Assembly (NCBI GenBank): GCA_039630545.1
Contig: JBCNUU010000002.1
Coordinates: forward strand, 1-64,000
Direction: 5' to 3'
Origin: Endomicrobiia bacterium
GTDB taxonomy: Bacteria; Elusimicrobiota; Endomicrobiia; DTEH01
DNA length: 64,000 nt
Of the stretch, positions 37,973 to 64,000 are shown piece after piece. Every line of letters starts with the position of its first letter. Positions within the stretch are counted from its first letter, which is position 1. The position numbers were made by a program, and so were the translations under genes. Below the pieces are notes generated by a model, which ran no database searches, had not been told where the DNA came from, and saw only the letters and a list, made by a program, of their open reading frames with translations.

Positions 37973-38709
37973 TGAGAAGTATTTATCTTATTGTAACAAT
38001 TATATTTTTTTTGTTTTTTTACATTTTTCCGGCTGATAAATTTATATTTGCCTATCTTAAATATCCTGGTAACTGGGATCCATATCCTAATATACATAAT
38101 GATATTTTAGAAATTCTTGAGCTTACTACGAGCGTAAATGTGGAAAAACAAAGAATTGTGTTGGATCTTATGTCAGACAGGTTGAAATATGAGATTTCAA
38201 AAGTCCCTTTTGTTATATTAGTTGGCAATGATGAAGTAGTTATTCCTTTAAAGAACATAAAAGTTTTAAGAGACTATGCAGTAAGTGGGGGAACTATTTT
38301 TATAGAAGATGTTTCTGAGTTATATAACAGCAGATTTGATGAATCTATAAGAAAAATTTTAAAATTGATGTTTCCCGAATATAAGCTTAAAAAAACAGAT
38401 AAAGATTATGTATTAATGAAATCTTTTTATTTAATCCGTAAAGTTACAGGAAGAATAGCAATGTATAATTATTTAGAATACATTGAACATGAAAACCGCC
38501 CAATTATTATTTATTCAAGAAACAATATGATTTCATGTTGGGCACGAGATAGGTTAGGAAACTACATATATAACTGTATACCTGATGGAGAACAACAAAG
38601 GTTTAACTCTCAAAAGCTTTTTCTTAACATAATAATGTATTCTTTATGTGGCACATATAAAATGGATAAAGTTCATCAACCATATATTGAAGAAAGGCTA
38701 AAAAGGTGA
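37972..38709 (+). CDS. DUF4159 domain protein
   Basis: 'GNWDP', 'LRDYAVSGGTIFIED', 'SFYL', 'NIIMYSLCGTYKMD.VH'. Confidence 0.8.
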   Translation: MRSIYLIVTIIFFLFFYIFPADKFIFAYLKYPGNWDPYPNIHNDILEILELTTSVNVEKQRIVLDLMSDRLKYEISKVPFVILVGNDEVVIPLKNIKVLRDYAVSGGTIFIEDVSELYNSRFDESIRKILKLMFPEYKLKKTDKDYVLMKSFYLIRKVTGRIAMYNYLEYIEHENRPIIIYSRNNMISCWARDRLGNYIYNCIPDGEQQRFNSQKLFLNIIMYSLCGTYKMDKVHQPYIEERLKR

Positions 38710-47017: not shown

Positions 47018-47059
47018 AATAAAGATTTTGTATATAAAAATTGAAAAAGGAGGGATTTT

Positions 47060-48193: not shown

Positions 48194-51100
48194 CCATAAG
48201 TAATTTTATTTTAAAATTCAAAATTTTTAGGATTTTATTCTTATTTTTGAGATATATAATAACTTCGATAAATGTAATAGTTGGATGTTTTATGTTAAAT
48301 GTGTTAGTGGACAAAATATTTCCATTTCCTATTTTTATATTTCATATTTACTGGATAATAATCTGTCTAATTGTTGTTGTATTTTTTTTAAATTTTATAA
48401 AAAGAATTTATGAAACTTTAAAATATCCTTATAAATATCTTCAAGAAGAACTTATCAAAAATTCTCTTATTAAACATAAAGATGAATTAATAAATGCTTA
48501 CTTAATAGAAAATTTATTGTTTTCATCTAAAAATTTAAATTTTTCAAAAGAACTTTCTGAAAAATTTACAGAAAAAATTTTGGAGATTTTAAAAAAGATA
48601 AATTTTAGCAAAATTACAGGATTTGACAGAATAAAAAAAATTTTGCCTTTAAATATAGTTTTGTTATTAATAATTTTTATTTTATATTTTTTACCGCCAC
48701 AAGTAATAAAACCAACCATCCATAAATTTCTTTTTACTAGAAGACCTGACATTTTGGGAATATTTATTACTCCTAAAAATATAAAAGTCCCTTATGGAGA
48801 AAACTGTGTAATTAAAATTATTGTAGAAAAAGGTTATGAATTATACAAACCAGAATTATTTATTAAAGCAGGTTTATCTGAAAAATTTATAAAGGTGGAT
48901 CTTTTGGATATTAATGAATATAAAACAGGTAAAATCTATAAATATGAAATTGACTCTGTAATTGATAAAATTTTTTATAAGGTAAAATTTCGTGGTATAA
49001 CTTCTAAAGTTTATACAATAGAACCTATAGTATTACCTGAAATATCAGATATAAAAATTTTGATAATACCTCCTTCTTATACCAAATTAAAACCTTATCA
49101 ACTTCAAAGTTTCAATGAAGATAAAATTTTATATAATAGTGAAGTAGAGTTTAAAGCCACACTAAACAAAGATATAGATATAGCTTATTTGAATATCTAT
49201 AATAGAAAAATAAAACTTTTTCTTAAAGATAAAAGATATATTTCAGGTAATTTTAAAGCTATTAAAGATTGTGATTTATCTTTTGAAATTTTCGATATGG
49301 AAGGCCTAAATAACACTTTAAAATATCAGATCAAAGTATTTTATGATAAACATCCTGAAATTGAAATCATTTCACCTGAAAAAGAAATAGTTTGTGACAA
49401 AAATATACAAATACCTATAGTATATACAGCTAAAGATGATTTTGGTATCTTAAAAGTTAAACTTATATACAGAAATATCAAAAAAAATGACGAAAAAGTT
49501 TATGTAGTAAAAGAATATAAAGAAACTATCCAAGAAACAATAGATGAGTATATTTTTGACCTGAGCAAATTAAATTTAGATTTTGGTGATATAATAAATT
49601 ATTATTTTGTAGTTTATGACAATGACGAAACGGCAGGATATAAAACTGCTTCTACTGAAGAATATAAAATAGAAATTTTTAGTTATGAACGTCAACATGA
49701 AACAATACAAAAGGAAATACAAAGTTTTATAGAAGAATCTATTATTATTCTTTCAAAAGAGATAGAACTAAAGGAAAAATTATCTGAAATTACTACTTTT
49801 CAGTTTAATATGATAAATGAATTAACAAGGCAGCATGAAGCTTTATCTAAAAATTTTGACAATTTAAATAAAATTTTAGATTCAATTCTAGATAAAATGC
49901 TTTCGGATCCTTACACTTCTATAGATACTTATATGGAATTTAAAAATTTGCAACCGCAAATAACTGGACTGAAAGATATTAACTCCAAACTCACAAATAG
50001 TTTAAAACAAAATGACCTTATCAACTCTTCTTATTTCCAGGATCAGATAATAAACACTTTAGAAAGGGCAACTATGTTATCAGAAAAAATTATGAAAAGG
50101 CAAAATATGCAAAATATTTCTAGTATGATTAAAGAAACTACTGATATTTCAAAAGATCTTCTGGATTATCTTAACAAAATCTCTAACATCTCAAAAGATG
50201 ATATTATAAAACTTAATAATTTACTTAAAGAAATTGAAGACAAACTGAACAAAATTGCAAATATGTTTAAAAATATGTCTAAAAATTTACCTGAAGAGTT
50301 TATAAATCGTAGAGATGTCCAGAACATTGATTTCTATTCTCCTATGGATTTGTTAAGTCAACTTTATAATGCTGTTTCTAAAGGAGATATAAATTCAGCT
50401 ATTAGAATAGCTGAAGCATTAATGAAACATCTAAATTCTCTATCAAAAACTTTAATGGAAGCAAGTTCTGATGTCTTATCATCACAAGCTTATAGTGTGA
50501 AAGAAAAATTAAGCAATATAATAGAAGAATTAGATAAACTCATCTCTTCTCAACAGGAGATTTATGATGAAACTAAAATTATAGATGATTTCAGAATAAA
50601 AGAGATTTTAAAATTGCAGGAAAAATTATTAGAAGAAATAATGAATGAAATAAACAGAATAATAACAAAAATTAGAGATATTGAAAGTTTACCTCAGTTT
50701 ATGAAGTTTATAAATAAACAGTTTTATAAAATAAATTCTGAACGGGTTATAGAAAACTTAAATAAAATTTTAATGGAAATAAAAAACAAAAAACTGCTAC
50801 AAACTCCGGTATGGATAAATGAAGCAATAATATATTGGCAAAGAAATGTTGAAATTACAGAAAATATTGACAAATACGAATATAACGAATTGATCCTTGT
50901 TACAAAAGAAATAAAAGATAAATTGGATAAATTAAACAATATCTTCAACTATCAACCTGAAATTGAATACCCAACTAAACTTATAGAAAAAAACAATCAA
51001 CTTTATGATAAACAAAATAAACTTATAGAAAAAACAGAACAATTTATAGAATCTATCAAATCCATTGGAAAAGAAAGCTTCATTGTTTCAAACAATGATA

Positions 51101-51483
51101 TCCTGCTAGCCTCACAAGCAAAAGCTGAGATGCAGAATTCTAAAAATAATTTATCAAAATTTTCATTTCCAGAAGCTTTACAAAGCCAAAATAATGCTAC
51201 AAATTTATTGTTACAACTAAAGAATAATTTTTCTGAAAAATACACAATGTTTGAACAACTTTTTCAATCAATAGGTCAAGCAATGTCATCAAAACTACAA
51301 ATGAAATCTTCTTATAGTAGTGGACAGTTCGGAATTTTGACAGGAAGAGTAACGCTACCTTCTGCTAAAGAATACATTCCACCAAAAGAGCTAAGAGAGG
51401 ATATTATAAAATCATTATCTGAAAAGTACCCAGAAGAACTTAAAAAAGTTATAGAAGAATACTATAGAAAAATATTAAAGTGA
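48190..51483 (+). CDS. DUF4175-like membrane protein with Ig domains and a helical C-terminus
   Basis: N-terminal TMs, 'PPSYT', 'DKHPEI', 'AKDDFGI', 'DND..G.K', C-terminal 'Y.PPKELREDI..YPE..IEEYYRKILK'. Confidence 0.75.
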   Translation: MTISNFILKFKIFRILFLFLRYIITSINVIVGCFMLNVLVDKIFPFPIFIFHIYWIIICLIVVVFFLNFIKRIYETLKYPYKYLQEELIKNSLIKHKDELINAYLIENLLFSSKNLNFSKELSEKFTEKILEILKKINFSKITGFDRIKKILPLNIVLLLIIFILYFLPPQVIKPTIHKFLFTRRPDILGIFITPKNIKVPYGENCVIKIIVEKGYELYKPELFIKAGLSEKFIKVDLLDINEYKTGKIYKYEIDSVIDKIFYKVKFRGITSKVYTIEPIVLPEISDIKILIIPPSYTKLKPYQLQSFNEDKILYNSEVEFKATLNKDIDIAYLNIYNRKIKLFLKDKRYISGNFKAIKDCDLSFEIFDMEGLNNTLKYQIKVFYDKHPEIEIISPEKEIVCDKNIQIPIVYTAKDDFGILKVKLIYRNIKKNDEKVYVVKEYKETIQETIDEYIFDLSKLNLDFGDIINYYFVVYDNDETAGYKTASTEEYKIEIFSYERQHETIQKEIQSFIEESIIILSKEIELKEKLSEITTFQFNMINELTRQHEALSKNFDNLNKILDSILDKMLSDPYTSIDTYMEFKNLQPQITGLKDINSKLTNSLKQNDLINSSYFQDQIINTLERATMLSEKIMKRQNMQNISSMIKETTDISKDLLDYLNKISNISKDDIIKLNNLLKEIEDKLNKIANMFKNMSKNLPEEFINRRDVQNIDFYSPMDLLSQLYNAVSKGDINSAIRIAEALMKHLNSLSKTLMEASSDVLSSQAYSVKEKLSNIIEELDKLISSQQEIYDETKIIDDFRIKEILKLQEKLLEEIMNEINRIITKIRDIESLPQFMKFINKQFYKINSERVIENLNKILMEIKNKKLLQTPVWINEAIIYWQRNVEITENIDKYEYNELILVTKEIKDKLDKLNNIFNYQPEIEYPTKLIEKNNQLYDKQNKLIEKTEQFIESIKSIGKESFIVSNNDILLASQAKAEMQNSKNNLSKFSFPEALQSQNNATNLLLQLKNNFSEKYTMFEQLFQSIGQAMSSKLQMKSSYSSGQFGILTGRVTLPSAKEYIPPKELREDIIKSLSEKYPEELKKVIEEYYRKILK

Positions 51484-53063
51484 TGAGAGCTTTTAAGCTA
51501 TTTATATTTTTAATTCTAAATCTTCAATTAGTATATTCTAAATCTACTGAAGAATTACTCTCTTTGCTTGAAGCAGGGGATTTTAAAAATGTTGAAAAGA
51601 TTTTAGATGAAATTAAAGATGAAAATAAAAAAACATTTATGAATTCAATTTATTATCTTTATTCAGGTGATTATGAAAAAGCCTATGAATACATATCAAA
51701 AACATCTTCAGAAAGTATTTCTCAGAAGGATTTGTTTTTCTTTTATTATATTCCATATATTTACCAATTATTCAAAGAAGGATATAAAAAATATGAGACA
51801 GAAAATTTTATAATATATTTAAAAGGAAAAGATGAAATTCTTAAAGATTTAGTTCTGGAAAATTTTACAAAAATATTCAGTACATATAATGAAAAATTTA
51901 AATATTACCCTGAAGATAAAATAAGAATTGAAATATATTCTACAAAGGAGGAATTTTGTAATGCCTCAACATTACCTGAAGAAATAGTTAAAAAAACAGG
52001 AGTTGTAGGAATTTGTAAGTTTAACAGAATAATGATTTTATCCCCAGAAAATTTGCCTTATGGATATAGATGGTTAGACACATTAGCACATGAATATATT
52101 CATTTTTTGCTTAATAGAATCACCAAATTTAGATGCCCATTATATTTACATGAAGGAACTGCAAGATATTTTGATACTCTTTATAGGTCTACTTATCCTT
52201 TATGTTTTAGTGTCGGCAATTTAAAAGAACTTTTAAAAGCAAAAAGAAATAATGAATTAATTCCATTCGAAAAATTCAAAGGGTCATTAGTTTATCTTGA
52301 TACACAAAAACAGATAGAATTAGCCTTCGTAGAATTAGCTAGTTTCGTGGATTATTTAATAAACAATTATGGAGAAGAAAAGTTTATTGATGTAATAAAT
52401 AAATATTCCAATTTTAATGATGAGAAAATGTTATATAGAAAGATTTTTAACAGAGAATACCAAGAAATAATATCAGACTGGCTTGAAAGTATTGAAAGAA
52501 AAAATGAGCTGATAGAGAAATATCCAGGTGCCATGATGGATGTAAAAATTTTAAGTTTAGAAAATGAAAAAGAATTATTAACTTTAGATATTTACCAGTA
52601 TGTAGAACTTGGAGATAAATTTTTAGAAAAAAAACAGTATAAAGCAGCTTTATATCAATATAGAAAAGCTCAAAATCAACAACCCTACAACCCATTTGTT
52701 ATGACAAAGCTAGCCAAGGTGTTGTTGCTGTTAAAAGATTTTAAAAATGCAGAAGAAATTTTGAAAGAATGTATTAATGTTAATCCTAACTTTGCCGGTG
52801 GATATGAATTAATTATACAACTGTATTATGAAACTTCAGATTATTTTAAAGCTTTAGAATACTACAGAGAGCTTTTGCAGATTAATCCATTTAATTATAA
52901 AATTAGAAAAATTATAGCAGAAATTTATTCTGATTTAGGAAAACTCAAAGAAGCTTTATATGAGTATAAGAATATTAGTCTGCTTACACCTCAAGATAAA
53001 AGTATTATTTCTATAATTGATAGAATAAATAGATATTTAGAAATCAAATACCAACCAAAATGA
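51480..53063 (+). CDS. Peptidase MA-like zinc metalloprotease with TPRs
   Basis: 'WLDTLAHEYIH' (HExxH) and downstream 'LHEGTA'; signal peptide; C-terminal TPRs. Confidence 0.82.
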   Translation: MMRAFKLFIFLILNLQLVYSKSTEELLSLLEAGDFKNVEKILDEIKDENKKTFMNSIYYLYSGDYEKAYEYISKTSSESISQKDLFFFYYIPYIYQLFKEGYKKYETENFIIYLKGKDEILKDLVLENFTKIFSTYNEKFKYYPEDKIRIEIYSTKEEFCNASTLPEEIVKKTGVVGICKFNRIMILSPENLPYGYRWLDTLAHEYIHFLLNRITKFRCPLYLHEGTARYFDTLYRSTYPLCFSVGNLKELLKAKRNNELIPFEKFKGSLVYLDTQKQIELAFVELASFVDYLINNYGEEKFIDVINKYSNFNDEKMLYRKIFNREYQEIISDWLESIERKNELIEKYPGAMMDVKILSLENEKELLTLDIYQYVELGDKFLEKKQYKAALYQYRKAQNQQPYNPFVMTKLAKVLLLLKDFKNAEEILKECINVNPNFAGGYELIIQLYYETSDYFKALEYYRELLQINPFNYKIRKIIAEIYSDLGKLKEALYEYKNISLLTPQDKSIISIIDRINRYLEIKYQPK

Positions 53064-54157
53064 ATATATCTTCAGAAAGATTATTTGAAAAATTAAAAGA
53101 AATAGATTGGTATGAAGATATAGAAAGAATAACAAAAGAATTAATCAAACATAACATGAATTTTTATTTTGTTGGTGGTACCCTTAGAGATGCTATTATT
53201 TCAATAATTTATAACACCAAATTTAATCCTGAAGACATAGATATAGTAGTAGAAACAGAAAATTATGAAGAATTAATCAAACTGATTTCCGGTATATCTT
53301 TTAATAAAAAAACTTTAATCGTGAAGTATCCTCAATTTTTAACTTTAAGTATCACTTTAATTTCTAAAGAAGATAATACAAAAAGGATAGATTTATCTTT
53401 ACCAAGAAAAGAAGAATATGAAAAATGGGGTGCACTCCCTCAAGTAAAACATGGTAGTATAAAGGAAGATTTATTCCGCAGAGATTTCTCTATTAATGCT
53501 GTTTCTTTAAGGTACGATGTTAATAATCAAAAATTTGAAATTTTGGATTTGTTTAATGGGATACAGGATATATTTAACCGAAAAATAAGGATTTTACATG
53601 AAAAAAGTTTTTTTGATGATCCTACACGAATAATTAGAGCCATAAGATTATCAGCAAAATTAAAGTTTAAATTTGAAAAACATACTTTAAGATTATTAAA
53701 TGAAGCATTAAATAAAGATGTATTTAAACATATTTCACAGAATAGACTTATAAATGAATTTGTTCACATATTAAAAAAAGGGGGAAATCTAAAGGTAGTA
53801 GCATGTTTATTTAAAAGTTTAAAACTAATTAAAGTTTATGAACCAATAAAAGAGATAATAGAATGTTTTATGAAAAATTATGATAAAATAGAACTAGCCA
53901 ATGTACCCCTTACTTTTGAAGAAAGATATCTTATAAGATTGTTTTATCTACTTGAAAGCCTCTGTAAGGAAAAAGAGAATTTGGATAATAAAACTAGCAA
54001 GTTTAAAAAATATCTCATTCAGCTTAATATTCCTCGTAAAACAAGAGAAAAAATATATAAAGCATTACAAATATTTTCAGGAAAAACAAAAAAGATAGAA
54101 CAAATAGAAAACTGGATGAAGTTATATATTATGTTATATAAGAAAAACAAATTTTAA
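53060..54157 (+). CDS. Class II tRNA nucleotidyltransferase (CCA- or A-adding)
   Basis: 'VGGTLRD..DIDIV', flexible loop 'RKEEY..GALP', 'EDLFRRDFSINA', 'SFFDDPTRIIRAIR'; no HD domain. Confidence 0.88.
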   Translation: MNISSERLFEKLKEIDWYEDIERITKELIKHNMNFYFVGGTLRDAIISIIYNTKFNPEDIDIVVETENYEELIKLISGISFNKKTLIVKYPQFLTLSITLISKEDNTKRIDLSLPRKEEYEKWGALPQVKHGSIKEDLFRRDFSINAVSLRYDVNNQKFEILDLFNGIQDIFNRKIRILHEKSFFDDPTRIIRAIRLSAKLKFKFEKHTLRLLNEALNKDVFKHISQNRLINEFVHILKKGGNLKVVACLFKSLKLIKVYEPIKEIIECFMKNYDKIELANVPLTFEERYLIRLFYLLESLCKEKENLDNKTSKFKKYLIQLNIPRKTREKIYKALQIFSGKTKKIEQIENWMKLYIMLYKKNKF

Positions 54158-54295
54158 AAAAACTGCTTTCTTCCTTTCCATTGTTAGGATCAAACCAGTG
54201 GTGATACAAAGTCAACAAAATGTAAAATTTATAATTATCTTATTTTAGACGGAAAAATAAAAAAATAATTAAAATGTAAATTTTTTGTTAAAAAG

Positions 54296-54324
54296 TTGAC
54301 ATTTTTTAAATTTATATATATAAT
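54296..54324 (+). promoter_or_regulatory. Perfect sigma70 promoter at the head of the CTD-PorV-FliF/G-coiled-coil operon
   Basis: TTGACA(54296-54301)-N17-TATAAT(54319-54324). Confidence 0.85.
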
Positions 54325-54364
54325 AACTATAGAAAAGCAAAGCTACGGATATTTAAAAACAAAA

Positions 54365-54808
54365 ATGAAAAAACATTATATTTATCGTTTTTTTTATTCT
54401 AAAAATATAATTTACATTTTTTTTACTTTAAATTTTTGTATATTAATGTTACTACACTTTTCTTATTCTGAAAGTTCTATTTTTGATAAAACAATTGTAA
54501 ATTATACAACTTTTTTACACGAAGGACTTTTAGAAGAACCAAATATTGTTTTTACCAATTTCCCTAATCCCTTTAATAGGTATACTTATATCTACATAAA
54601 ATTTCCTTATGTTAGCAGCTGTGTATTAAGTATCTATGATTTGTTAGGCAACAAAGTGAAAGAATTTATTTTAACAGAAAATTCTGAATATCTTATAAAA
54701 TGGAATGCAACAAATAATAATTCACAAAAAATTTCAACAGGTGGATATATCTGTGTGCTGATGTATAAAAACAGAAAGCTAATAAGAAAAATAGGATATA
54801 CAAGATGA
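54365..54808 (+). CDS. Small exported protein made essentially of a T9SS-like/FlgD-Ig sorting domain
   Basis: The ORF-track TTG at 54296 is the -35 box; in-frame ATG 54365 is used. Hydrophobic leader, then 'NFPNPFN..IYDLLGNKVK..WNATNNN..STGGYIC..RKIG'. Confidence 0.75.
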   Translation: MKKHYIYRFFYSKNIIYIFFTLNFCILMLLHFSYSESSIFDKTIVNYTTFLHEGLLEEPNIVFTNFPNPFNRYTYIYIKFPYVSSCVLSIYDLLGNKVKEFILTENSEYLIKWNATNNNSQKISTGGYICVLMYKNRKLIRKIGYTR

Positions 54809-56379
54809 CGAAAATTATTAAAAGAATCATTTTAATATTATTAGGAGCGAATTTTCAATATATATATTCTACTTATACTGGAGGACAGCCTGGAGAATTT
54901 TTGAATTTTGGTGCTTCTGCAAAAGCAATGGCAATTAAAAGTTTCTTTTCTATTTCTAATGATGCTTCGGCTGGATATTACAATCCCGCTGGTCTTGTTC
55001 AATGCGATAAAAAAGAAATCACTGCCTTGCATACAGAACTTTTTCCAAATACTCAAACTATTTACGATTACATAGGTTTCGTATATCCAACAATAAAATA
55101 TGGTGTGTTCTCTTTAAGTCTGGTGCAGTTGCTTTCTTTGAAATTCGAAAAAATTATAGTAGAATTTGATCCTTCTGGTTCAGGTGATATAATAAATATT
55201 CAACACCAAGGATATTTTGATGATAGACAAATAGGAGTGATATTAAGTTACGGAAAAGAAGTTGTAGAACATATAAATGTGGGAACATCTTTAAAATATA
55301 TCACAAGAAAACTGGATATTCATTCAGACACAATGGTAAGTCTTGATGTTTCTGTCTTAGTAATTGGAATAAATTCAAAATTACCTTTTTTAAACTTTGC
55401 AGCTGGTATTAAAAATCTAATCTCAGCATCAATGAATACAGAAGATAAACTCCCATTAATTTTCAAAATAGGTGGTTCTTATAGATTTTTAAGAGAAAAA
55501 TTAATTGTGGGAGTGGATTTAGAAAAAAATGTTAACTCAGAATTCAAATGGATGGTTGGGATAGATTACTGGATATTAACTTTTTTAGCTTTAAGATTAG
55601 GTTTTGAAGGGTTAAGTTATTTAAAAGAAACCACAGCTGGTTTGGGGTTCAAATATCGTGACTACTCTGTAGATTACTCATTTGGTTACCATGAGTTAGG
55701 TTTTTCTCATAGAATCTCTGCTAATATGAAATGGGGAAAATCTGTAAAATTTGACAAGGAAGAAACGATAAAACGCTTTGTAAATGAAGCTATAGCAAGA
55801 TATACCACCGGTCAGTTCTTAGAGGCAACTAAAAGTTTACAATTAGCTTATCAGATAGATCCTAATAAAAAAGAAATTAAAAAAATGCTTGATAATTTAC
55901 TTATGATTACAGCATACATTCAAAGAGCCACAGAAGATACAGAAGAACATCAGGGAATAAGAAAAGCTGTTCAAGCTTTAATGGAAGGTGATTTAACTAC
56001 TACGGTGAATTCTTTAAGATATGCTTATTACAAAAATCCTGCAAATAAAACTCTTTTACAATTACTAAATCGTATGGAACAACTAGCAGGTATGCCTTTA
56101 ACAGAACCTTATAAAGAAGAAATTGCAGGCTGGACCATAATAGATAAAAAAATATATGAAGCAAGGGAAGATGTCTTAAATGGAAGATATACTGATGCAA
56201 TAAGAAAGTGTCAAGAAATACTTAATTTAGAACCTAAAAATACAACTGCTATGGAGATTATGGGTTCAGCTTTCTTTATGATGAATGAAATTGAAAAAGC
56301 AAAAGCTATATGGAAAAAGGTATTAGAACTTGATCCTACAAATAAAGTAGTACAGCAATTTTTAGAAGAGTTAGAATAA
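54805..56379 (+). CDS. PorV/PorQ-family outer-membrane barrel with C-terminal TPR domain
   Basis: 'GEFLNFGASAKAMA..NDASAGYYNPAGL', 'LPLIFKIG', 'LALRLG', 'VDYSF..LGFSHRIS', followed by TPR helices. Confidence 0.82.
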   Translation: MTKIIKRIILILLGANFQYIYSTYTGGQPGEFLNFGASAKAMAIKSFFSISNDASAGYYNPAGLVQCDKKEITALHTELFPNTQTIYDYIGFVYPTIKYGVFSLSLVQLLSLKFEKIIVEFDPSGSGDIINIQHQGYFDDRQIGVILSYGKEVVEHINVGTSLKYITRKLDIHSDTMVSLDVSVLVIGINSKLPFLNFAAGIKNLISASMNTEDKLPLIFKIGGSYRFLREKLIVGVDLEKNVNSEFKWMVGIDYWILTFLALRLGFEGLSYLKETTAGLGFKYRDYSVDYSFGYHELGFSHRISANMKWGKSVKFDKEETIKRFVNEAIARYTTGQFLEATKSLQLAYQIDPNKKEIKKMLDNLLMITAYIQRATEDTEEHQGIRKAVQALMEGDLTTTVNSLRYAYYKNPANKTLLQLLNRMEQLAGMPLTEPYKEEIAGWTIIDKKIYEAREDVLNGRYTDAIRKCQEILNLEPKNTTAMEIMGSAFFMMNEIEKAKAIWKKVLELDPTNKVVQQFLEELE

Positions 56380-56391
56380 AGGGTATAAAAT

Positions 56392-58287
56392 ATGAAATTA
56401 TTGAAAAAACTCTTTAAATTTTATATAAAATTTCATACAAAAATGGGCAAATTTAAATTTTCAATTCCTTTTCTACTCATCATACTTTCTTTTGATTTAT
56501 TCAACCAAACAATAGCTACTTTGCCTTCTGAACAGCAGATTTCACCTATTATGCTAATTGAATATGAAACAAAACTGGAACAACAAAAAACAGAATACGT
56601 ACAAAAAAACATACTTGATAAAATTTTCGGTCCTAATAAATCCACAGTGATGATAGATATAACATTAGGTTTAAGAACCACTACAACTAAACAACAAGCT
56701 TCTGAGAAAAAAATTGATGCAAAACGAAAACTTGGTGAAACAGAATATTTGTTACCTGGAATTCCTAAACCAGGATCTATTACTGAGTCTGCTGTTCCAG
56801 CTGAAGCTAAGGGTGAAGCTTCTGGAACAGAAGTAGTAGGAGTTAAAACTGAAATAGTAATTGAAAGACAAAATGTAACTGTAATATATGATGAAAAAAT
56901 AAAAGATGAAAAGGTAGAAATAGCAAAAGAGTCAATTATTTCTACTCTTGGCATAAAAAGACCTCAAGATATAGTATTTAAAAAAGCAAAATTCAAAACA
57001 GATCTTTTAAATAAATTCTTAGAAAACATTGTTTTACCTAAGTATTTTATTCCTTTATTGATTACTCTGCTTCTGCTTGCATTTTTGTTTGGTCCGATAG
57101 CTAATTTTTTAAAAAATTATTTAAGAATGTTAAAAGAACGAGCACCTACTGAAATTTCAATAGACTCAAAACTTGCCCGTGAAGGAGAAACTCCTGAAGG
57201 AGAACTTACAGCAGAAAAAGCAACAAGTGGAATCGGTTTATCTGGAGGGCAGTTTGAATCACAGTTTACAGGAAAAGAAAAAGAAAAGGAAAAAGAGGAA
57301 GAAAAGTATATCCCATTTAGCTACATTAATGATGATAATATAAAAAGACTAACATATCTTATAGCAAAAGAAAAACCAGAAGATATAGCAATTGTTCTGA
57401 GTTATTTAAAACCCGAATATGTTAAACAAATTATAGAAAGTTTTAAACCACACCTTCAGGCCAAAGTGGCTTTAGCTTTAGCTCAAGCTAGAGAAATTCC
57501 ACAAGAAGAAGTTATAAGAATGGACAATTATGTAAAAGAAAGAATAGATTTTCTAGTTGGAGGCTTACATCATCTTATTGAACTTCTACAGAAGGTAGAC
57601 AAAACTACAAGAAACAATATCCTTGAATATTTAAAAAACGAAAAACCAGATATCTACAATAAAGTGAGACCTCAAATATTTTTGTTTGAAGATATTTACG
57701 AAATCCCAGATGTTACCTTGCAGGTTATCATAAGAGAACTAAAACCTGAAAATATAGCACGTGCTTTAAGAAATGCGCCACAAAACTTAATAGAGAAGTT
57801 TTTTAAAAATATGTCAGAAGGAGCACAGGCTTTGGTAAAAGAAGAAATGGAATATGGCAGACCTATGACTAAAGAACAGATTGAAGAAGAACAAAATAAA
57901 ATATTAGAAGTTATAAGAAAATTAGAACAAGAAGGAAAAGTATATTTAAAAGAAAAAGAAAAAACTTTTTTAATTGATGCTTCAGAAGTAATGGTATTAA
58001 CACCCAGAAAAATAGAAGACTCACCTGGATATGAGTATTATATTACAGCAACAGAATTATATCAACAAGGTAATTATGAAGAAGCCTTTAATTATTTCTC
58101 ATATGCTACAGAATTAGATCCTCAATTATATGAAGCATATCAATATATGGGAAACATCCTATACGAGTCAGGCAGATACAATGAAGCACTTTCCTATTAT
58201 AAAAAAGCCTTGGAATTAAATCCTCAAGATCAAGAACTTGCTAAATGGATAGAAGAGATAGAAAAAAATATATCTTTAACAATTTAA
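56392..58287 (+). CDS. FliF(RBM3)-like periplasmic domain, TM, FliG middle/C-terminal domains and TPR in one fusion protein
   Basis: FliG motifs 'EKPEDIAIVLSYL' (cf. EHPQ), 'GG', 'IFLFEDI' (cf. MFxF), 'KFFKNMSEGAQALVKEEME', 'EEEQNKILEVIRKLEQEG'. FliF-like 'ILDKIFGPNKSTVMIDITL..LPGIP..IERQNVTVIYD..IISTLGI..DIVF..F' precedes the TM. Confidence 0.75.
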   Translation: MKLLKKLFKFYIKFHTKMGKFKFSIPFLLIILSFDLFNQTIATLPSEQQISPIMLIEYETKLEQQKTEYVQKNILDKIFGPNKSTVMIDITLGLRTTTTKQQASEKKIDAKRKLGETEYLLPGIPKPGSITESAVPAEAKGEASGTEVVGVKTEIVIERQNVTVIYDEKIKDEKVEIAKESIISTLGIKRPQDIVFKKAKFKTDLLNKFLENIVLPKYFIPLLITLLLLAFLFGPIANFLKNYLRMLKERAPTEISIDSKLAREGETPEGELTAEKATSGIGLSGGQFESQFTGKEKEKEKEEEKYIPFSYINDDNIKRLTYLIAKEKPEDIAIVLSYLKPEYVKQIIESFKPHLQAKVALALAQAREIPQEEVIRMDNYVKERIDFLVGGLHHLIELLQKVDKTTRNNILEYLKNEKPDIYNKVRPQIFLFEDIYEIPDVTLQVIIRELKPENIARALRNAPQNLIEKFFKNMSEGAQALVKEEMEYGRPMTKEQIEEEQNKILEVIRKLEQEGKVYLKEKEKTFLIDASEVMVLTPRKIEDSPGYEYYITATELYQQGNYEEAFNYFSYATELDPQLYEAYQYMGNILYESGRYNEALSYYKKALELNPQDQELAKWIEEIEKNISLTI

Positions 58288-58305
58288 TTCTAGGAGGAGA
58301 TTTAG

Positions 58306-61300
58306 ATGAGTATATTTGACAAAATTAAAATTAAATTTTCTCAACAAGATGTCCGAAAGAATGAAATCAGTAATAACACTGATTTAGCTAAATCTTCCTG
58401 CGTTTCTGCTACTTCACAAAAAGAATCACAAGAAGATTTATCTATGCTTAAAGAAAATCTATTAGCGGAATTCCATTATTTAGAACAAAAAATACAACAA
58501 GAAAGGGAAGAATTGCTTTCAAGGTTAAATTCAAAGGAAGAAGAACTTGTTTCTTTAGAAATGAAATTATCTTCATTAGAATATAAAATAAATTTTAATA
58601 AAATAGATTTTGGGAAAGAGATTGAAAAAATTAAAAATCAAATTAGTGCTGAATTAGAAAAACTTAATGAAGAATATAATATTGAAATAACTAAATGGCA
58701 AAAAAAATTAGAAAACAAATCCAATGAGATTGAGCAGCTAAGAAACAAAATCATATTAGAAGAAACACAAAATAAAATGCTTACAGAACAAAAAAAGCAA
58801 GAATGCAAACAAGAAATTGAATTTCTTAATAACAGGGTAGAAAATTTGAAAAAACAATTAGAAGAAGAAAAAGAAAAATTTTTAAAAAGGATAAACGAAA
58901 AAGATGAAGAAATATTGAAATTGAAATCGCTGATAGAGTTAAAAGAAAAACAACTAAAAATAGAAGAAGAAAAATATTTATTGTTAGCTAAAGATCTTAA
59001 TGAAAAAAGAATTACTCAAATCTCTGAAATGCAGAGAAAATTTGATGAAAAAATTGAAAATTATAAAAAACTTTATAAAGCAAAAGAAGAAGAATATTTC
59101 ACGATAAAAAACATTCTAGAGCAGAAATATCAAGAATGGCAGCAACAACAGGAAGAAATTGTAAGTAATCTACAAAATAAAAAACGATTATATGAAGAAA
59201 AAATAAATGAATTATCTCAAGAAGTAGAAAAAATAAAAAAAGAATATGAAACAATAATTTTACAAAAAGAAGAGGAAATTAAAAAATTAAAAGTAGAGAT
59301 AATGTTAAAAGAAACACAACAAAATGCACTAATAGAGCAAAAAAAGAAAAGTCTAATAGATGAAGAACAAAAGATTCATCAACAGATTTGTGAACTAGAA
59401 CAAAAGTTTATAAAAGAATATGAAAATTACAACAAACTAATTAAAGATAAAGATCAGGAAATAATACAACTGCAAATTTTATATCAACAAAGAACTTCGC
59501 AGCTAAAAGAAGAATGGGACAAAAAAATAAAGAAACTTCAACAGGAAAAAGAAAACTTAGAAAAAGAAATAATAGATTTAACAAATTTACTAGATACTAC
59601 AAAAAATAAGTTTTTTAAAATAATTGAGGATAAAAAAGATTACATCAGAACACTTAAAAAACAATATTATGAAAAAACAGAAATTTTCAAAAAACAATTT
59701 GAAGAATTAATAGAAAAAGCACTCAAAGAAAAACAACATCTTGAAGAGGAATATAAAATAAAAGAAAAAGAATTTACAACCAGAAAAAATGAATTAGAAG
59801 CAATTTTAAAGAAAAAAGAAGAAGAGATACTTTATCTTAATTCTAAAATTGAAGCTGAAATTGAAAATCATCAAAAGAAATTGCTCTTACTTCAAAAGCA
59901 ATTTGAATATGAAAACAGACCACTTTATATTCGAATTTCTAAACTAAAAGAAGAAATAAAAAACAAAGAGGCTAAGTTAAAAGCATTCATTGAGAAAAAG
60001 GATAAAGAAATAGAACAAATTGTAAAAGATTATGAGAATTTTAAAAATGAAGCTGAAAAAAGACATTTAGAAAAAATAAATGAGATAGAAAATCGCAAAA
60101 AACAATATGAAACAAAGATATTCAATTTACAAAATACATTATTAGAATACGAAACTCAATTTAAAGAAAAAATAGCTCAGTTAGAAGAAAAACTTCAACA
60201 AGCCACTAAAGAATTATCTAATATAGAAGAAAATTTTGAAAAAGAAAAACAAAAAATCATTGAAGCTAATAAAGAAGAAATTAAAAAAATAGAAACAGAA
60301 ATAGCAAGTTTGCAAAGCAAAATAAATGATTTATCAGAGTATCAAACTAAAATTGAGCAAGAAAAAAATACAGAGTTAAATGAATGGAAAAACAAATTAG
60401 AAAGTTTAAAACAACTAAAAGGAAAAGAATTAGAAGATCTTCAAAAAAATGCAGAAAAAGAGTATTTAAAATATGAACAGGAGTTAAAAAATATAGAAGA
60501 AAAGATTTCTTATAAGAAAAAAGAATACGATAAAATTTTATATGAAAAACAAAAGAATTTAGAAACTTTAATAAGCAATTTAGAACAAAAAAAATTAACT
60601 TATGAACAACAGTTATTGGATTTAAAGAAGCATTGGGAAAACAATCTGACACCTTTAATAAATAAGAAAAAAGAATTACAAAATGAGGTTATTTTATTAG
60701 AGACAAATAGTAAAAATTTAATAGAGAATTATATAAAAGAAATAAATGACTTAAAATTAGCATATGAAGAACAACAGAAAACTTACCAAATTCAAGAGAA
60801 TCAAAAAAAAGAAGAAATTAAAAAAATAAAACAAGAGCTTTTTGAAAAAATTAAAAATAAGCAGCAAGAAATAGAAGAAATCACACAATTCTATACTCAA
60901 AAATTATCAGAACTCGAAAACAACAAAAACAATATAATATTCCAGAATAAAAAAATTTTGGAAAATTTAGAATTAGAAAAGGAAAAAGTAAATAATGAAT
61001 TTGAAAATAAAAAAAGAGAACTACAAAAAGAAATAGAAAATTTAGAAAATAAAATAGTAGAAATAAATCATACTATCAAAATTCAAACGGATGAAAAAGA
61101 AAAAGAAAAAGAATCTTTAATTATACAACTGAAAGAATTACAAAAAGAAAAAGAAGCAAAACTTTTTAAACTGCAGAAAACTTCAGAACTCATATCAGAT
61201 CGCTTAGAAAGGAGAATCAAATTTTATACTGAAACATTAAATTCTTTAAGAAATGAATATGAGAAGTTAATTTCTCAAAAACAACAAGAATTAGAATTTG

Positions 61301-63117
61301 TTTTATCAGAATGGAAAGATAAAGAATCAACAATTATAAACGAAATAAATGAACTGGTAGAAAAGAAAACCAAAGAAATAGAAAATTTACAAATTCAAAA
61401 AGAACAATTATTAGAAAAAATTTCTAAAATAGAAAAAGAAGGAAAAGAAACTATAGAAAACATTCAAAATGAAATTTCAAAACTTAAATCTGAGATATCT
61501 TCTAAAAAAGAGTTATTTGAACAAGAATGGAGCTTAAAACAACAAGAATTTGAAGAATTAAAATCATCTTTTTATTCTGAAATTTCAAATCTTAAATCAA
61601 AAATTAACTTAGAAGCAGATGAATATAAACTTAAACTGACAGAAAAAAATCAAGCTATATCTACCTTAAAACAAGAATACGAAGGAAAATATAACCAACT
61701 TTTAAATGAATATAACAATAAAAAGAAAGAATTTGCTGTAAAAATTGAAAAATTAACTTCTCAAATAAATTCGTTAGAAGAAGAACTCTCATTAAAACAA
61801 CAAGAATATAATAGATTAAAAAGAGATAAAGAAGAAGAACTCAAGGAGTTAATATCTAAATTTTCAGATTTAGAACTAACAATTAAATTAGAAGAAGAAA
61901 AAAGGACAAAACAATTAGCCGAACAGAAAGAAAAATTTGAAAAAGAAATAGAATATTATAAATCTCAGCTCGAAAAACAAAGGAAAGAATATTTGGAAAA
62001 ACTTAACCTCCTCTTTGTTGAAGAACAAAGAATAACACAACAATATAATGAATTGGAAAAACAACTTTCTCAACAACTCTTAGAAGAAGAAAAAAATTAT
62101 GAAATAAAGAAAGAAAATTTACAAAAAGAAATTAAATTACTTCAAGATAAAATAAAAAATATAGAGTCTGAAAATGAAAGTTTAATAAAAGAATTGCAAA
62201 AAGAAATAGACAATATTAAAACAAAAATTGCTTTAAAAGAAATAGAAATAGCATCTGCAAAAAATAAATTAAATTTTGAACTTAAAAAATTTGTTTCAGA
62301 TTATGAACAAAAAAAAGATAAAATAATAAAAGAATTCAACAAGGAAAATATGGAAATTTTACAAAGAATTAAAAACAAAGAAGATGAAATAAATACATTA
62401 CAAACAAGATGTTCTTTAAGAAATCAAGCAATATTAGAAGAAAAAAGAAGAAGAGAAGAATTTATGGAAAGAGAAATCAAAAAAATAATGGATGAATTAA
62501 AAGAAATCGAAACAAATTATAAATCAAAAGAAAACTATTACAAAAATCGTATTCAACATTATAAAGAAAATATTGAACTTTTGAAACAACAACTTCAAAT
62601 TTTGCTACAAAACTGGGAAGACGAAAAAAATAAAATGTTGTCAAAGAAAGAATCACATAAAAAACTATTAAATGAAGAGATAAATATGTTAAAACAAAAA
62701 TTAAATGAGTATAAATATATCATTAATGCTTTAGTTGAAAAAATAGAGTCAAAACTAAAATTAGAAAATGAACTTTTAGAAATAAAAGATTCAGAACTTA
62801 TAAAAGAAAAAGAAATTACACAATATGTGATGGAAAAGATCTTCTCAACCGTACCAGGAAAAAAATTTAAAGATAAAATTGATAAAACTCAGCTATATAA
62901 AGCAATAGATCTATACAATGCACAACAATATGATATAGCATTGAAAGAATTTTTGAAGTTGCTAGCAGATGATGAAAATAACGAAATTGTCAATCAATAC
63001 ATTAGTTTATGTTATTATAATCTAAATGATATCCAAAATGCAAAAAAATATGCTTTAAAAGTGTTAGAAATTAACCCAGAAAATAATGCAGTTAAAAATT
63101 GGCTTAAAGAAATATAA
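58306..63117 (+). CDS. Giant coiled-coil protein of about 24 tandem 61-aa periods with a C-terminal TPR
   Basis: E/K/Q/L/I-rich, almost no Pro/Gly, no signal peptide or Walker A; motif recurs every 183 nt; TPR 'AIDLYNAQQY..ALKVLEINPEN'; RBS AGGAGG. Confidence 0.85.
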   Translation: MSIFDKIKIKFSQQDVRKNEISNNTDLAKSSCVSATSQKESQEDLSMLKENLLAEFHYLEQKIQQEREELLSRLNSKEEELVSLEMKLSSLEYKINFNKIDFGKEIEKIKNQISAELEKLNEEYNIEITKWQKKLENKSNEIEQLRNKIILEETQNKMLTEQKKQECKQEIEFLNNRVENLKKQLEEEKEKFLKRINEKDEEILKLKSLIELKEKQLKIEEEKYLLLAKDLNEKRITQISEMQRKFDEKIENYKKLYKAKEEEYFTIKNILEQKYQEWQQQQEEIVSNLQNKKRLYEEKINELSQEVEKIKKEYETIILQKEEEIKKLKVEIMLKETQQNALIEQKKKSLIDEEQKIHQQICELEQKFIKEYENYNKLIKDKDQEIIQLQILYQQRTSQLKEEWDKKIKKLQQEKENLEKEIIDLTNLLDTTKNKFFKIIEDKKDYIRTLKKQYYEKTEIFKKQFEELIEKALKEKQHLEEEYKIKEKEFTTRKNELEAILKKKEEEILYLNSKIEAEIENHQKKLLLLQKQFEYENRPLYIRISKLKEEIKNKEAKLKAFIEKKDKEIEQIVKDYENFKNEAEKRHLEKINEIENRKKQYETKIFNLQNTLLEYETQFKEKIAQLEEKLQQATKELSNIEENFEKEKQKIIEANKEEIKKIETEIASLQSKINDLSEYQTKIEQEKNTELNEWKNKLESLKQLKGKELEDLQKNAEKEYLKYEQELKNIEEKISYKKKEYDKILYEKQKNLETLISNLEQKKLTYEQQLLDLKKHWENNLTPLINKKKELQNEVILLETNSKNLIENYIKEINDLKLAYEEQQKTYQIQENQKKEEIKKIKQELFEKIKNKQQEIEEITQFYTQKLSELENNKNNIIFQNKKILENLELEKEKVNNEFENKKRELQKEIENLENKIVEINHTIKIQTDEKEKEKESLIIQLKELQKEKEAKLFKLQKTSELISDRLERRIKFYTETLNSLRNEYEKLISQKQQELEFVLSEWKDKESTIINEINELVEKKTKEIENLQIQKEQLLEKISKIEKEGKETIENIQNEISKLKSEISSKKELFEQEWSLKQQEFEELKSSFYSEISNLKSKINLEADEYKLKLTEKNQAISTLKQEYEGKYNQLLNEYNNKKKEFAVKIEKLTSQINSLEEELSLKQQEYNRLKRDKEEELKELISKFSDLELTIKLEEEKRTKQLAEQKEKFEKEIEYYKSQLEKQRKEYLEKLNLLFVEEQRITQQYNELEKQLSQQLLEEEKNYEIKKENLQKEIKLLQDKIKNIESENESLIKELQKEIDNIKTKIALKEIEIASAKNKLNFELKKFVSDYEQKKDKIIKEFNKENMEILQRIKNKEDEINTLQTRCSLRNQAILEEKRRREEFMEREIKKIMDELKEIETNYKSKENYYKNRIQHYKENIELLKQQLQILLQNWEDEKNKMLSKKESHKKLLNEEINMLKQKLNEYKYIINALVEKIESKLKLENELLEIKDSELIKEKEITQYVMEKIFSTVPGKKFKDKIDKTQLYKAIDLYNAQQYDIALKEFLKLLADDENNEIVNQYISLCYYNLNDIQNAKKYALKVLEINPENNAVKNWLKEI
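58534..62745 (+). repeat. 183-nt (61-aa) degenerate tandem repeat within the CDS
   Basis: Anchor Lys of [IL]xxK[DE]xE[IL] at 58534, 58717, 58900, 59083, 59266, 59449, 59632, 59815 and 59998, and still in phase at 60364, 60547, 61096, 61279, 61645, 61828 and 62377. Confidence 0.85.
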
Positions 63118-63136
63118 AAGGGGGTAATAAAAAGAA

Positions 63137-64000
63137 ATGGATGAAATAAATAAACCACAAATACCCAAACCACCTCTTCCTTCTAATAAACCATCGGGGC
63201 CTAAACTGCCTGTTGGGAACGATAAACAAGTTAATTTACCATTTAAAAAAACAACTCAACCGCAAATTAGTACTCCTTCTAGGAGTATATCGAGTAGTTC
63301 TTCAACTACTCCACCACAATTTTCTTCATCTATAGAACAAAGATTATGGGAAGCAGAACAAGCAAAAAGACAAATGGAAATTCAACTGCAAGAATTGCAA
63401 AGAATGTTACTTGAAGAACGGGAAAAACTTATAATGCAAACAATGAAAACAAAAGAAGAAGAAGCACTCGCTGCAAAAGTTGAAGAGAGTATAAAAGACA
63501 TACAGGAAAGATTAAGAAGAGAAAAAAGAGAACAAGAACTGAAAGAAGAAAAAGAAAAACTCTTAAAACAGATAAAAGAACTTGAAGAACGACTGGCAAA
63601 AGAAAGAGAAACGTGGATAGAAACTTTAAAGACCCAGATGTCTCAAAGAGATCTCCAAGACCAGCAAATTGAACAGCAGTTTATTGCTAAAATAAGAGAT
63701 ATAGAAGCACGTTGGCAGGAAGAAAAAACTAAATTTCAGTTAATTCTTAAAAATAAAGATGAAGAAATAAATAGAATTAAAAATGAATATAAAGTTTTGG
63801 AAGAAAAACTTAAAGCAGATTTTGAAAAACAAATTGCAGAATATAAATTCCAGTATAAGAATTTTGAGAATGAAATAAAACATTTAAAAGAGGAAATCAC
63901 TGAAAAAGAAAAAGAGATTCTTGCATTGAAATCTACAATTGCCACAATGCAATCTGAGTCAAACATATCTAAGGATAAGTTTAATTATGAAATTAAAAAG
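63137..64000 (+). CDS. 3'-truncated coiled-coil protein with a Pro/Ser-rich N-terminal head (absent from the ORF track)
   Basis: GGGGG RBS-like sequence, ATG 63137: MDEINKPQIPKPPLPSNKPSGPK...IEQRLWEAEQAKRQMEIQLQELQ...; the frame stays open to the window end. Confidence 0.85.
   Translation, partial: MDEINKPQIPKPPLPSNKPSGPKLPVGNDKQVNLPFKKTTQPQISTPSRSISSSSSTTPPQFSSSIEQRLWEAEQAKRQMEIQLQELQRMLLEEREKLIMQTMKTKEEEALAAKVEESIKDIQERLRREKREQELKEEKEKLLKQIKELEERLAKERETWIETLKTQMSQRDLQDQQIEQQFIAKIRDIEARWQEEKTKFQLILKNKDEEINRIKNEYKVLEEKLKADFEKQIAEYKFQYKNFENEIKHLKEEITEKEKEILALKSTIATMQSESNISKDKFNYEIKK

Follow-up and report, generated by a model that had tools for sequence, protein, structure and literature searches.

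What fixes the length and the phase of a very long coiled coil? The question is raised by a locus in a stretch of 64,000 nucleotides (nt) from an Endomicrobiia bacterium of the phylum Elusimicrobiota (GenBank assembly GCA_039630545.1, contig JBCNUU010000002.1, positions 1 to 64,000; the whole stretch is called the window below). Near its end a single open reading frame (ORF), here named gene D, encodes a rod protein of 1603 amino acids (aa). An earlier note on this DNA had described the product as a coiled coil with an exact 61-residue period and proposed a staggered filament or a molecular ruler, perhaps a new cytoskeletal protein. Herein, the comparison of homologues shows what reads as strong selection on both the register and the length of the rod. 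D may be a register-locked structural rod, a spacer or scaffold, of a flagellum-free FliF-FliG envelope machine, a reading to which we give about an even chance. The parts of gene D are listed first.

58306..63117, + strand: gene D, rod protein; one ORF, 1603 aa.
58306..58341, + strand: residues 1-12, conserved aromatic/basic N-terminal tail of the MxxFDKxKxKF type (alignment consensus; N-termini of 36 sequences).
58438..62850, + strand: residues ~45-1515, continuous coiled-coil helix (stripe phase, AlphaFold2 (AF2), alignment; the start near residue 45 is taken from the alignment).
58534..62742, + strand: residues 77-1479, 23 exact 61-residue units, each 7-11-7-11-7-11-7 (autocorrelation, stacking, Fourier, profile).
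62851..62883, + strand: residues ~1516-1526, short flexible linker (AF2 predicted local distance difference test (pLDDT), indel clustering).
62884..63111, + strand: residues ~1527-1602, two tetratricopeptide repeats (TPR) and a capping helix (Pfam, profile versus PDB, AF2 superposition).
59920-59922, 60652-60654 and 61078-61080, + strand: residues 539, 783 and 925, conserved prolines.

The period was measured by BLOSUM autocorrelation of residues 51-1500. The top six lags are 61, 122, 183, 244, 305, and 366, with z values of 11.3-14.4, while the highest z among 200 shuffles is 4.1. Lags 61, 122, 183, and 244 are all in the top five for each of the first 11 orthologues (11/11), and likewise in all later ones. 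Stacking the protein at 61 gives 23 mutually similar units at residues 77-1479, preceded by a partial unit; residues 1480-1540, the would-be unit 24, are not a repeat. The count of about 24 repeats in the earlier note thus becomes 23 full units and one partial unit. The motif [IL]xxK[DE]xE[IL], which the note had placed every 183 nt from position 58534, holds its phase: of the 24 anchor residues (77+61k), 16 are K and the remaining 8 are L, Y, or I. The full motif occurs 9 times, 7 of them in phase (shuffle mean 0.56, maximum 5 in 1000), and four or more of its five positions are matched at 10/24 anchors versus 1.4% of all offsets. The repeats had also been called strongly diverged. The paralogous units are indeed 19% identical to one another, and Tandem Repeats Finder finds no 183-nt DNA tandem repeat in gene D; the array is therefore old.

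The hydrophobic core columns of the unit follow the steps 3,4 / 3,4,4 / 3,4 / 3,4,4 / 3,4 / 3,4,4 / 3,4, that is, 7-11-7-11-7-11-7, which agrees with the proposed decomposition 61 = 4x7 + 3x11 at about 3.59 residues per turn. When 24 sequences are pooled, the strongly hydrophobic columns are 4, 7, 11, 18, 22, 29, 36, 40, 43, 47, 54, and 58; column 54 is aromatic (W/Y/F), and the other stripe sites are semi-polar (K/R/L). A surface motif, K-[ED]-x-E, is conserved at columns 0, 1, and 3 and recurs once per unit. The hydrophobic Fourier peak lies at 3.588 = 61/17 in 15/15 orthologues with a power of 108-188 times random, which indicates a stripe that is coherent along the whole rod. The phase of the stripe stays within ~20 degrees across more than 1300 residues of the rod. 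It is unbroken through the centre, where a hinge or zinc hook was considered, and no globular insert was found within the rod. AF2 applied to residues 1359-1603 with a 13-sequence alignment (mean pLDDT 87.6) predicts an unbroken helix to about residue 1515. The coiled coil is thus ~1470 residues long and uninterrupted, which gives D the rod of an intermediate-filament-like, coiled-coil-rich protein. An undistorted helix has 3.63 residues per turn (PMC9858780), so that a 61/17 stripe makes the coil of D only weakly left-handed and weakly supercoiled. The almost unwound rod of about 220 nm that had been expected comes out at ~217 nm.

Full-length orthologues of D turned up in whole-genome searches at three depths: within the genus, in further families of the class, and in further classes of the phylum. 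A profile of the last 800 residues matched 31 of 401 sampled Elusimicrobiota genomes at E <= 1e-25 and none of the 89 in that class's largest family. Another 13 full-length members came from an index-free profile search, which covered 1.84 billion representatives. The 61-lag series is present in every true homologue, with a stripe period between 3.584 and 3.590; coiled-coil or TPR matches in the same list that are unrelated have periods of 34, 60, 63, or 198 instead. The homologues carry only hypothetical or TPR protein annotation.

Rod length was taken as the distance between the columns of R67 and R1383 (window protein numbering) in 35 distinct full-length Elusimicrobiota homologues, which are 16-47% identical to the window protein. 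The length classes and the distinct gap runs in the alignments of D and its neighbours are as follows.

R67-R1383 distance 1316: 24/35 proteins.
R67-R1383 distance 1560 (+244): 6/35 proteins.
R67-R1383 distance 1804 (+488): 1/35 proteins.
R67-R1383 distance 1312: 3/35 proteins.
R67-R1383 distance 1308: 1/35 proteins, this one also cut at its N-terminus.
Gap runs in the D rod: 8 distinct, all pieces of the 244/488 blocks or of the 4-residue deletion.
Gap runs in the first 66 residues of D: 52 distinct.
Gap runs in D residues 1383-1500: 10 distinct, of 1-7 residues each.
Gap runs in the D linker and TPR: 20 distinct.
Gap runs in neighbour C: 63 distinct, 5 of them in the conserved FliG core.
Gap runs in neighbour E: 193 distinct.

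Orthologue lengths had been expected to differ by multiples of 61. In fact the multiple is always 244 = 4x61, and arbitrary indels are absent, one clade with a 4-residue deletion apart. Predicted rod lengths for the three classes would be about 217, 254, and 290 nm, with 244 residues corresponding to ~36 nm and one 61-residue unit to 9.06 nm. On a quick maximum-likelihood tree built on the conserved parts of D, the 28-unit (+244) state requires at least three changes on well-supported branches. There were therefore at least three independent length changes, each of exactly four units. Adjacent 244-residue blocks in the long forms are 18-32% identical, and the blocks are therefore old.

The claim that the period is free of indels was verified without alignment. 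Only the five sequences of the own genus went into training a 61-column profile, which was slid in segments of 183 residues along the other 30 homologues; a constant cyclic register was found in 628 of 659 segments. Transient deviations (7, 11, 18, 25) all return to zero, except in the clade with the 4-residue deletion. Compensated shifts of 7 and 3 residues in early alignments were treated as alignment slips and disappeared in a larger alignment.

These counts bear directly on the plainest explanation, that the period is a functionless relic of ancient internal duplication and that indels are scarce since resistance to them is common to all coiled coils. In its favour, the units are old and diverged, and unit-unit similarity, which is raised at lag 4 (0.415 vs ~0.35) and not at lags 8 or 12, fades with distance as a duplication history would give. 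However, coiled coil E, next to D in the same operon and the same genomes, has its 193 gap runs and a 474-residue spread in length. A parallel coiled coil should tolerate heptad or hendecad indels, but the 35 sequences, at 16-47% identity, contain none, and the independent length changes are all exactly 244. The relic explanation is strongly disfavoured, and we give it hardly any weight.

What, then, is conserved? The flexible N-terminal segment ahead of the rod varies from 42 to 87 residues, a spread of 45. Because this segment is variable, what is conserved to the residue is an internal register and not an end-to-end distance. A simple end-to-end ruler as the whole story is thus contradicted: the segment before the rod varies by 45 residues, whereas the rod never changes by 7 or 11. 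A parallel in-register bundle is indifferent to a heptad or hendecad indel shared by its chains, and the lock therefore implies a reading along the length. In the mechanism proposed here, the periodic surface of D would be read along its length, because the end linkers vary far beyond a heptad, yet the rod never changes by 7 or 11. The reader may be further rod copies, paired antiparallel or out of register, for which we would stake a little less than an even chance; a periodic partner or surface comes somewhat lower, at roughly a third, and anything else takes the small remainder.

One rival explanation is a self-assembling cytoskeletal filament or paracrystal, in which parallel dimers are staggered by 61 or a multiple, in the style of myosin, paramyosin, or intermediate filaments, and packing fixes the period. 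The strict conservation of the 61-register and of rod length, and the K-[ED]-x-E motif displayed once per unit, would fit such an assembly. The orthologue of E in one genome (G009) has a weak Pfam Filament match (4.6e-6, 26.9 bits), under the cut-off of 40. The charge test speaks otherwise. Net-charge power at the 61 harmonics is low and in none of 15 orthologues exceeds 11.5 times random, and no electrostatically favoured long-range stagger was found in the 4 of 15 orthologues scanned (z <=1.6 parallel, <=2.9 antiparallel). An indel in a parallel staggered array should also disturb only a stagger-long stretch around it, which leaves the total lack of heptad and hendecad indels unexplained. 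Moreover, docking-type elements sit on flexible linkers at both ends of D, the gene is tied to membrane-machine genes, and Pfam gives no filament-forming family domain in D. The filament-or-ruler proposal of the earlier note therefore keeps its selection on register and length and loses the staggered filament of the myosin/paramyosin type. We consider the filament explanation unlikely.

Another rival is an antiparallel architecture. Two chains, or two halves of one chain as in the arms of structural maintenance of chromosomes (SMC) proteins, would pair head-to-tail over the whole rod, an off-centre indel would set heptads against hendecads, and the N-terminal tail would lie beside the TPR of the other chain. 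The order 7-11-7-11-7-11-7 is palindromic, as antiparallel pairing would have it, but four heptads and three hendecads, mixed as evenly as possible, give a palindrome in any case. All 244-residue insertions map centrally, to residues ~600-850 with the rod centre near 780; antiparallel pairing, however, should predict a quantum of 61 or 122 and not 244. Unit conservation is high toward both ends of the rod and lowest in units 9-13, yet its mirror correlation is weak and has an off-centre axis, the best r of 0.74 being reached by 103 of 2000 permutations. A distant subfamily anchored by a transmembrane (TM) helix lacks both the N-terminal tail and the TPR, as this pairing might allow, and such proteins are more simply parallel dimers. 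Antiparallel pairing is rather doubtful in our judgement, on a level with the filament.

The quantum of 244 has a possible geometrical meaning. In the proposed mechanism, 244 residues would be one full superhelical turn of the 61/17 coil and the 61-residue unit a quarter turn, so that, with a block of 244 added, the axial register would be restored and so would the azimuth of the two rod ends. At 3.64 residues per turn, the superhelical period is 91 residues for a heptad coil and 252 for a 61/17 coil, and it is exactly 244 at 3.642. The value of 3.64 was chosen as it reproduces the 91-residue period measured for Smc arms (PMC5344682). In that work (Burmann et al. 2017), Smc arms function only at lengths on a 91-residue period, which is near the superhelical period (~99 expected), natural SMC arm lengths are multimodal, and local breaks of the repeat are not tolerated. 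If 244 is one superhelical turn, a helical parameter of 3.642 residues per turn could be read for a 61/17 coil from the sequences of the D family alone. As a functional analogy, the SMC arm stands closest to D, its length being tuned to the period of its superhelix. Each is a long coiled coil of poorly conserved sequence and constrained length. D differs in that it has no ATPase head, forms one continuous helix per chain and is three to four times longer; its stripe is 61/17 and not 7/2, its quantum is 244, and its length classes are residue-exact and not the modes of a distribution.

In a further rival explanation, D could be a side-binding ruler for a polymer or lattice, like tropomyosin or nebulin, with the 9.06-nm unit or the 36.2-nm block equal to the subunit repeat of the partner. 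A register kept over the entire length is what a periodic partner would be expected to impose, and MreB is encoded in the own genome. Set against this, no partner was identified, and Pfam scans of the locus found no cytoskeletal gene in the operon. A fit of 244 residues to about seven 5.2-nm subunits is, for now, numerology. Tropomyosin has seven quasi-repeats matched to actin, as PMC5344682 describes. We hold a side-binding ruler to be very unlikely.

The two ends of D were missed by the earlier note, as was the operon around it. The N-terminal tail of the window protein is MSIFDKIKIKF, and a variable, low-complexity linker comes after it. The hydrophobic moment of the tail exceeds the 95th percentile of the rod in 12/36 sequences and is weak in many others; an amphipathic membrane helix is a possibility. 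No hydrophobic segment or signal peptide was found in D, which is most likely a cytoplasmic rod protein by these predictions. At the other end, the AF2 model has pLDDT <50 at model residues 159-164 and no secondary structure at 158-168 (~10 residues), and indels in the D alignments concentrate at this linker (~1516-1526). Five short helices follow, which superpose on the two-repeat consensus TPR 1NA3 (CTPR2) with a root-mean-square deviation of 1.0 A over 76 columns; the model resembles the peptide-binding TPRs of co-chaperones. The sole Pfam family match of D is a C-terminal TPR_2, at 23.7 bits just below the cut-off of 27, and the profile of the D family matches consensus TPR proteins in PDB (CTPR3, E = 3e-18). 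Tandem 34-residue helix-turn-helix repeats of the TPR type are thus found at the C-terminus, with the model as part of the support. In the proposed mechanism the rod would be held at both ends, by the N-terminal tail at one and by the TPR at the other.

No SMC_N or ATPase domain was found in D by Pfam and NCBIfam, in agreement with the view that D has no ATPase head and is not SMC. Pfam gives no DivIVA match, and Pfam and NCBIfam give nothing beyond TPR, so that D itself has no homology to a flagellar component in these searches. Leads from the ESM Atlas, below 0.9, pointed to TPR proteins of PVC phyla and were not used. Within the rod, prolines are conserved at P539 (26/28), P783 (20/28), and P925 (26/28); the window protein itself has K at 925. 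P539 and P783 are both at unit column 35, exactly 244 apart. From their conservation, these prolines may be kinks or joints.

The neighbours of D in the predicted operon are listed here, with D in fourth place between C and E.

54296..54324, + strand: promoter-like site of the sigma-70 type, TTGACA-17-TATAAT, 12/12 matches.
54365..54808, + strand: gene A, small exported protein that is nearly a bare type IX secretion system type-A C-terminal sorting domain (NCBIfam TIGR04183).
54805..56379, + strand: gene B, signal peptide, PorV/PorQ-family outer-membrane barrel, helical region and two-repeat TPR (NCBIfam, Pfam).
56392..58287, + strand: gene C, FliF-like periplasmic part, FliG middle and C-terminal domains and two-repeat TPR (Pfam, AF2).
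63137..64000, + strand, continuing beyond the window to contig position 65569: gene E, second coiled coil, 810 aa, with a Pro-rich N-terminus and an aromatic/basic C-terminal tail.

Genes A-E are tightly packed and co-directional, with gaps of -4, 12, 18, and 19 nt. The promoter-like site ahead of them is the only perfect TTGACA-17-TATAAT within 53800-64000, and no terminator-like site was found in the same interval. D is predicted to be co-transcribed with B, C, and E, with which it is co-inherited. The sequencing runs listed for it comprise 3 DNA holders, all of one study, and no RNA holder. The order A-B-C-D-E is kept in all loci of the class that were examined and recurs with variations in other classes, where a giant protein bearing a C-terminal sorting domain and a small sixth gene, F, are added. 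F is a small coiled-coil gene (141-547 aa) downstream of E, found outside the own family. Within the class, a full-length, TPR-tailed C is present in 19 genomes, and D adjoins it in 19/19. A TPR-less FliG paralogue of C is also present in genomes where D was not found.

Gene C is the most informative neighbour. Pfam matches FliG_C (2.4e-29) and FliG_M (1.3e-10), and the orthologues in genomes G039 and G014 match YscJ_FliF_C. Two TM segments, at residues ~24-40 and 209-230, enclose ~165 periplasmic residues. Comparison with Thermotoga maritima FliG (1LKV) gives E = 3e-38. The AF2 model of C (pLDDT 68) matches FliG and TPR structures, and the model of its periplasmic part resembles the MS-ring structures of FliF at E ~6e-4 to 1e-3. 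In the torque-helix region (residues ~470-490; 57820-57870), the acidic pair E484/E485 is invariant in 13 orthologues, and the basic pair, KR in T. maritima FliG, is replaced (MSEGAQALVKEEMEY vs MSKRAAALLKDELEY). These residues probably correspond to Escherichia coli R281/D288/D289.

B, C, and D end in the same module of two TPRs and a cap. The module of D is 28% identical to that of C (E = 1e-6) and 30% identical to that of B (E = 5e-9). Gene B matches NF033709 PorV_fam with 95.7 bits (cut-off 90), with the barrel at about residues 30-310 and Pfam TPR_2/TPR_19 at 459-520. Gene A matches TIGR04183 Por_Secre_tail with 25.6 bits (cut-off 23) and has an N-terminal hydrophobic segment; its orthologue in G039 matches FlgD_ig. 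The mechanical ORF 54296-54808 begins at a TTG inside the -35 hexamer of the consensus promoter, and because of this overlap gene A more likely starts at the ATG at 54365, probably. Gene E adjoins D downstream in the 12 loci compared and ranges from 810 to 1284 aa with no conserved long period. Its N-terminal motif KPxxPPLP is conserved, as is its C-terminal motif [FI]WxxL[NTY][KE]P[VI][IL][KE]I within the class; proteins of other classes have W/F and basic tails. NCBIfam SMC matches in proteins E and F are at the coiled-coil level only and far under cut-off. An Rfam scan of 52000-64000 gave no match, and therefore no riboswitch is placed at this copy of the operon.

The wider genome speaks to the flagellar resemblance. 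Flagellin_N and FHIPEP (FlhA) were not found in the own genome, which is 95.5% complete. SprA_N gave no match there either, though its control gave none anywhere. The FliF-FliG fusion stands beside a PorV-like barrel that has a TPR tail, while the genome shows no genes for flagellar export or the filament. A second fusion of FliF_C, FliG_M, and FliG_C, 469 aa long and TPR-less, lies elsewhere in this genome, in the region ~13489-20230 of contig C2 (locus L068). It is followed by MotA (MotA_N), an OmpA-domain protein, MotB (plug and OmpA), a HAMP histidine kinase, and an Amidase_3 protein.

Because the operon holds a PorV-like barrel, a FliF/FliG fusion, and a second coiled coil, a dedicated part of an envelope machine appears a likelier role for D than a free-standing cytoskeletal filament. 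Several points weigh against the reading of D as the locked rod of such a machine. The function of D is read from sequence and gene order only. One lineage (f26) has no C gene between B and D, and physical docking of D on C is therefore not universal. The superhelical period depends sensitively on the parameter used, being 312 residues at 3.63, 252 at 3.64, and 212 at 3.65. The persistent pattern of four unit types is weak, and the 244 quantum could partly reflect duplication history. The lack of a favoured electrostatic stagger, given above, counts here as well. The 4-residue deletion is real, and the register lock is not absolute near the C-terminal end: the four proteins with distances of 1312 and 1308 share one deletion near residue 1250, with a jump of the stripe phase of +36 to +54 degrees and a lasting register shift of -4 confined to the C-terminal end, and they form a single clade with support 100. 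In distant homologues, orthology unit by unit can be traced mainly near the rod ends: of the 23 units, only 4-10 find their best match in the unit of the same index (118/368 overall vs a chance of about 1/23), and the misses are concentrated in units 6-16. Turnover of central units at a constant total number is possible from this pattern; if so, it would itself imply selection on total length.

A bolder version of the envelope machine was also considered. The ring of FliF/FliG-TPR could be a flagellar-type rotor with an intracellular output or reaction arm, in which an array of phase-locked 217-nm rods runs across the cytoplasm or along the membrane with the TPR and protein E making the link to a second site at the membrane. 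These bacteria are very small, with a cytoplasm ~0.2-0.3 um across. If the rotor were real, an ion-driven envelope motor would be coupled to cell geometry through the rod, which would act as a molecular ruler or strut, and the length classes of 217, 254, and 290 nm would track cell width or machine spacing. We regard the rotor as a long shot.

Long-range order in coiled coils is known from a handful of proteins, such as tropomyosin, myosin, Scy, and SMC arms. To our knowledge, in none of these is rod length residue-exact across a phylum and quantised in blocks. Myosin and paramyosin rods have a 28-residue charge repeat. Like D, tropomyosin and myosin/paramyosin have a long-range period on top of the coiled-coil repeat and a length tied to a higher-order structure; unlike them, D has no strong charge zoning, and its period is 61 and not ~40 or 28. 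CpoB/YbgF of the Tol-Pal system is a periplasmic protein of ~260 residues with a coiled coil and a C-terminal TPR; its gene closes an operon in which a MotAB-type stator is also encoded. D shares with it the order of a coiled coil and then a small TPR, and a gene placed with an envelope-spanning system related to flagellar stators; D differs by having no signal peptide, 1603 residues, and an exact long period.

Among bacterial rods, Scy/FilP of Streptomyces come closest to D in architecture. The Scy repeat is 51 residues, and we know of no report of length quantisation for Scy, for which no specific search was made. Scy and FilP are bacterial rods of more than 1000 residues with largely non-heptad, hendecad-containing repeats (PMC9858780). 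Such repeats in Scy/FilP and in D account for weak supercoiling and a long-range repeat. FilP and Scy have a DivIVA-like N-terminal domain (PMC9858780), which D lacks. The period of D is 61 = 4x7 + 3x11, its cores are rich in L/I and aromatics and not in Ala, it ends in a TPR, and it belongs to another phylum and gene context. Zorya offers another cytoplasmic coiled coil of great length, the ZorA tail, which is attached to a MotA-type motor. A MotA/ExbB membrane domain is missing from D, and its PADLOC match is confined to the coiled coil. A defence-system reading was rejected, since PADLOC gave just this coiled-coil-level ZorA3 match (2.2e-5, D 545-925) and no other Zorya genes in the operon. 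By its domains and period, D is classed with neither SMC nor Scy/FilP, and it is not a myosin-type charge-zoned rod or a ZorA tail.

No paper on a 61-residue coiled-coil repeat or on this gene cluster was found in a literature search, supplements lying outside it, and a phylogeny of MotAB (PMC12505986) has 0 mentions of Elusimicrobia. The D family is unannotated, and the gene cluster appears undescribed. The family amounts to a natural experiment in how coiled-coil length and phase are set, with coil E as an internal control. The cluster reuses FliF and FliG beside a PorV-like outer-membrane barrel, and a rod of defined length, 200-300 nm, could be picked up by cryo-tomography, which would make the machine directly searchable in cells.

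Further observations were made around the cluster and the family. In loci of other classes (L097, L099-L101), giants of 1099-2265 aa lie just upstream of B and end in a tail of the ...KGS(S/T)TVIRKIGVIH type; the small A proteins share the ...RKIGV(I/V)H tail with them. Upstream of the cluster in genomes G043 and G114 (L029, L060), genes resemble by eye CheY-type receivers, a response regulator, CheC/CheD-like proteins, and, farther away, a PilT-like ATPase. In G043 (loci L062/L029), C, D, and E are each broken by stops or frame changes (D 1553 + 264 aa, C 476 + 165 aa), from either sequencing errors or a decaying cluster. In the window itself, positions 35960-53063 upstream of the operon encode a Bat-type set (BatA/VWA, DUF4159, GATase1_like), three tandem TMEM260-like proteins of the O-mannosyltransferase type with TPR tails, an MGDG-synthase-like glycosyltransferase, a DUF4175 protein, and a Peptidase_MA_2-TPR protein.

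One relative of D, and a possible second one, depart from its plan. In the distant TM-anchored subfamily (P0034-P0036, P0040; ~886-905 aa), an N-terminal TM helix replaces the tail and there is no TPR. Its rod is homologous to the C-terminal ~700 residues of D, with the 61 period still visible. The loci of this subfamily (L105 in G124, contig C26; L106 in G128, contig C127) are not in a motor-like cluster, and G124 has both forms. P0051 is a giant coiled coil of 2758 aa with a similar N-terminal tail (MGLFDIKK...), a stripe period of 3.608, and main lags of 11, 18, and 36; it may be a relative whose repeat has 18 residues (7+11).

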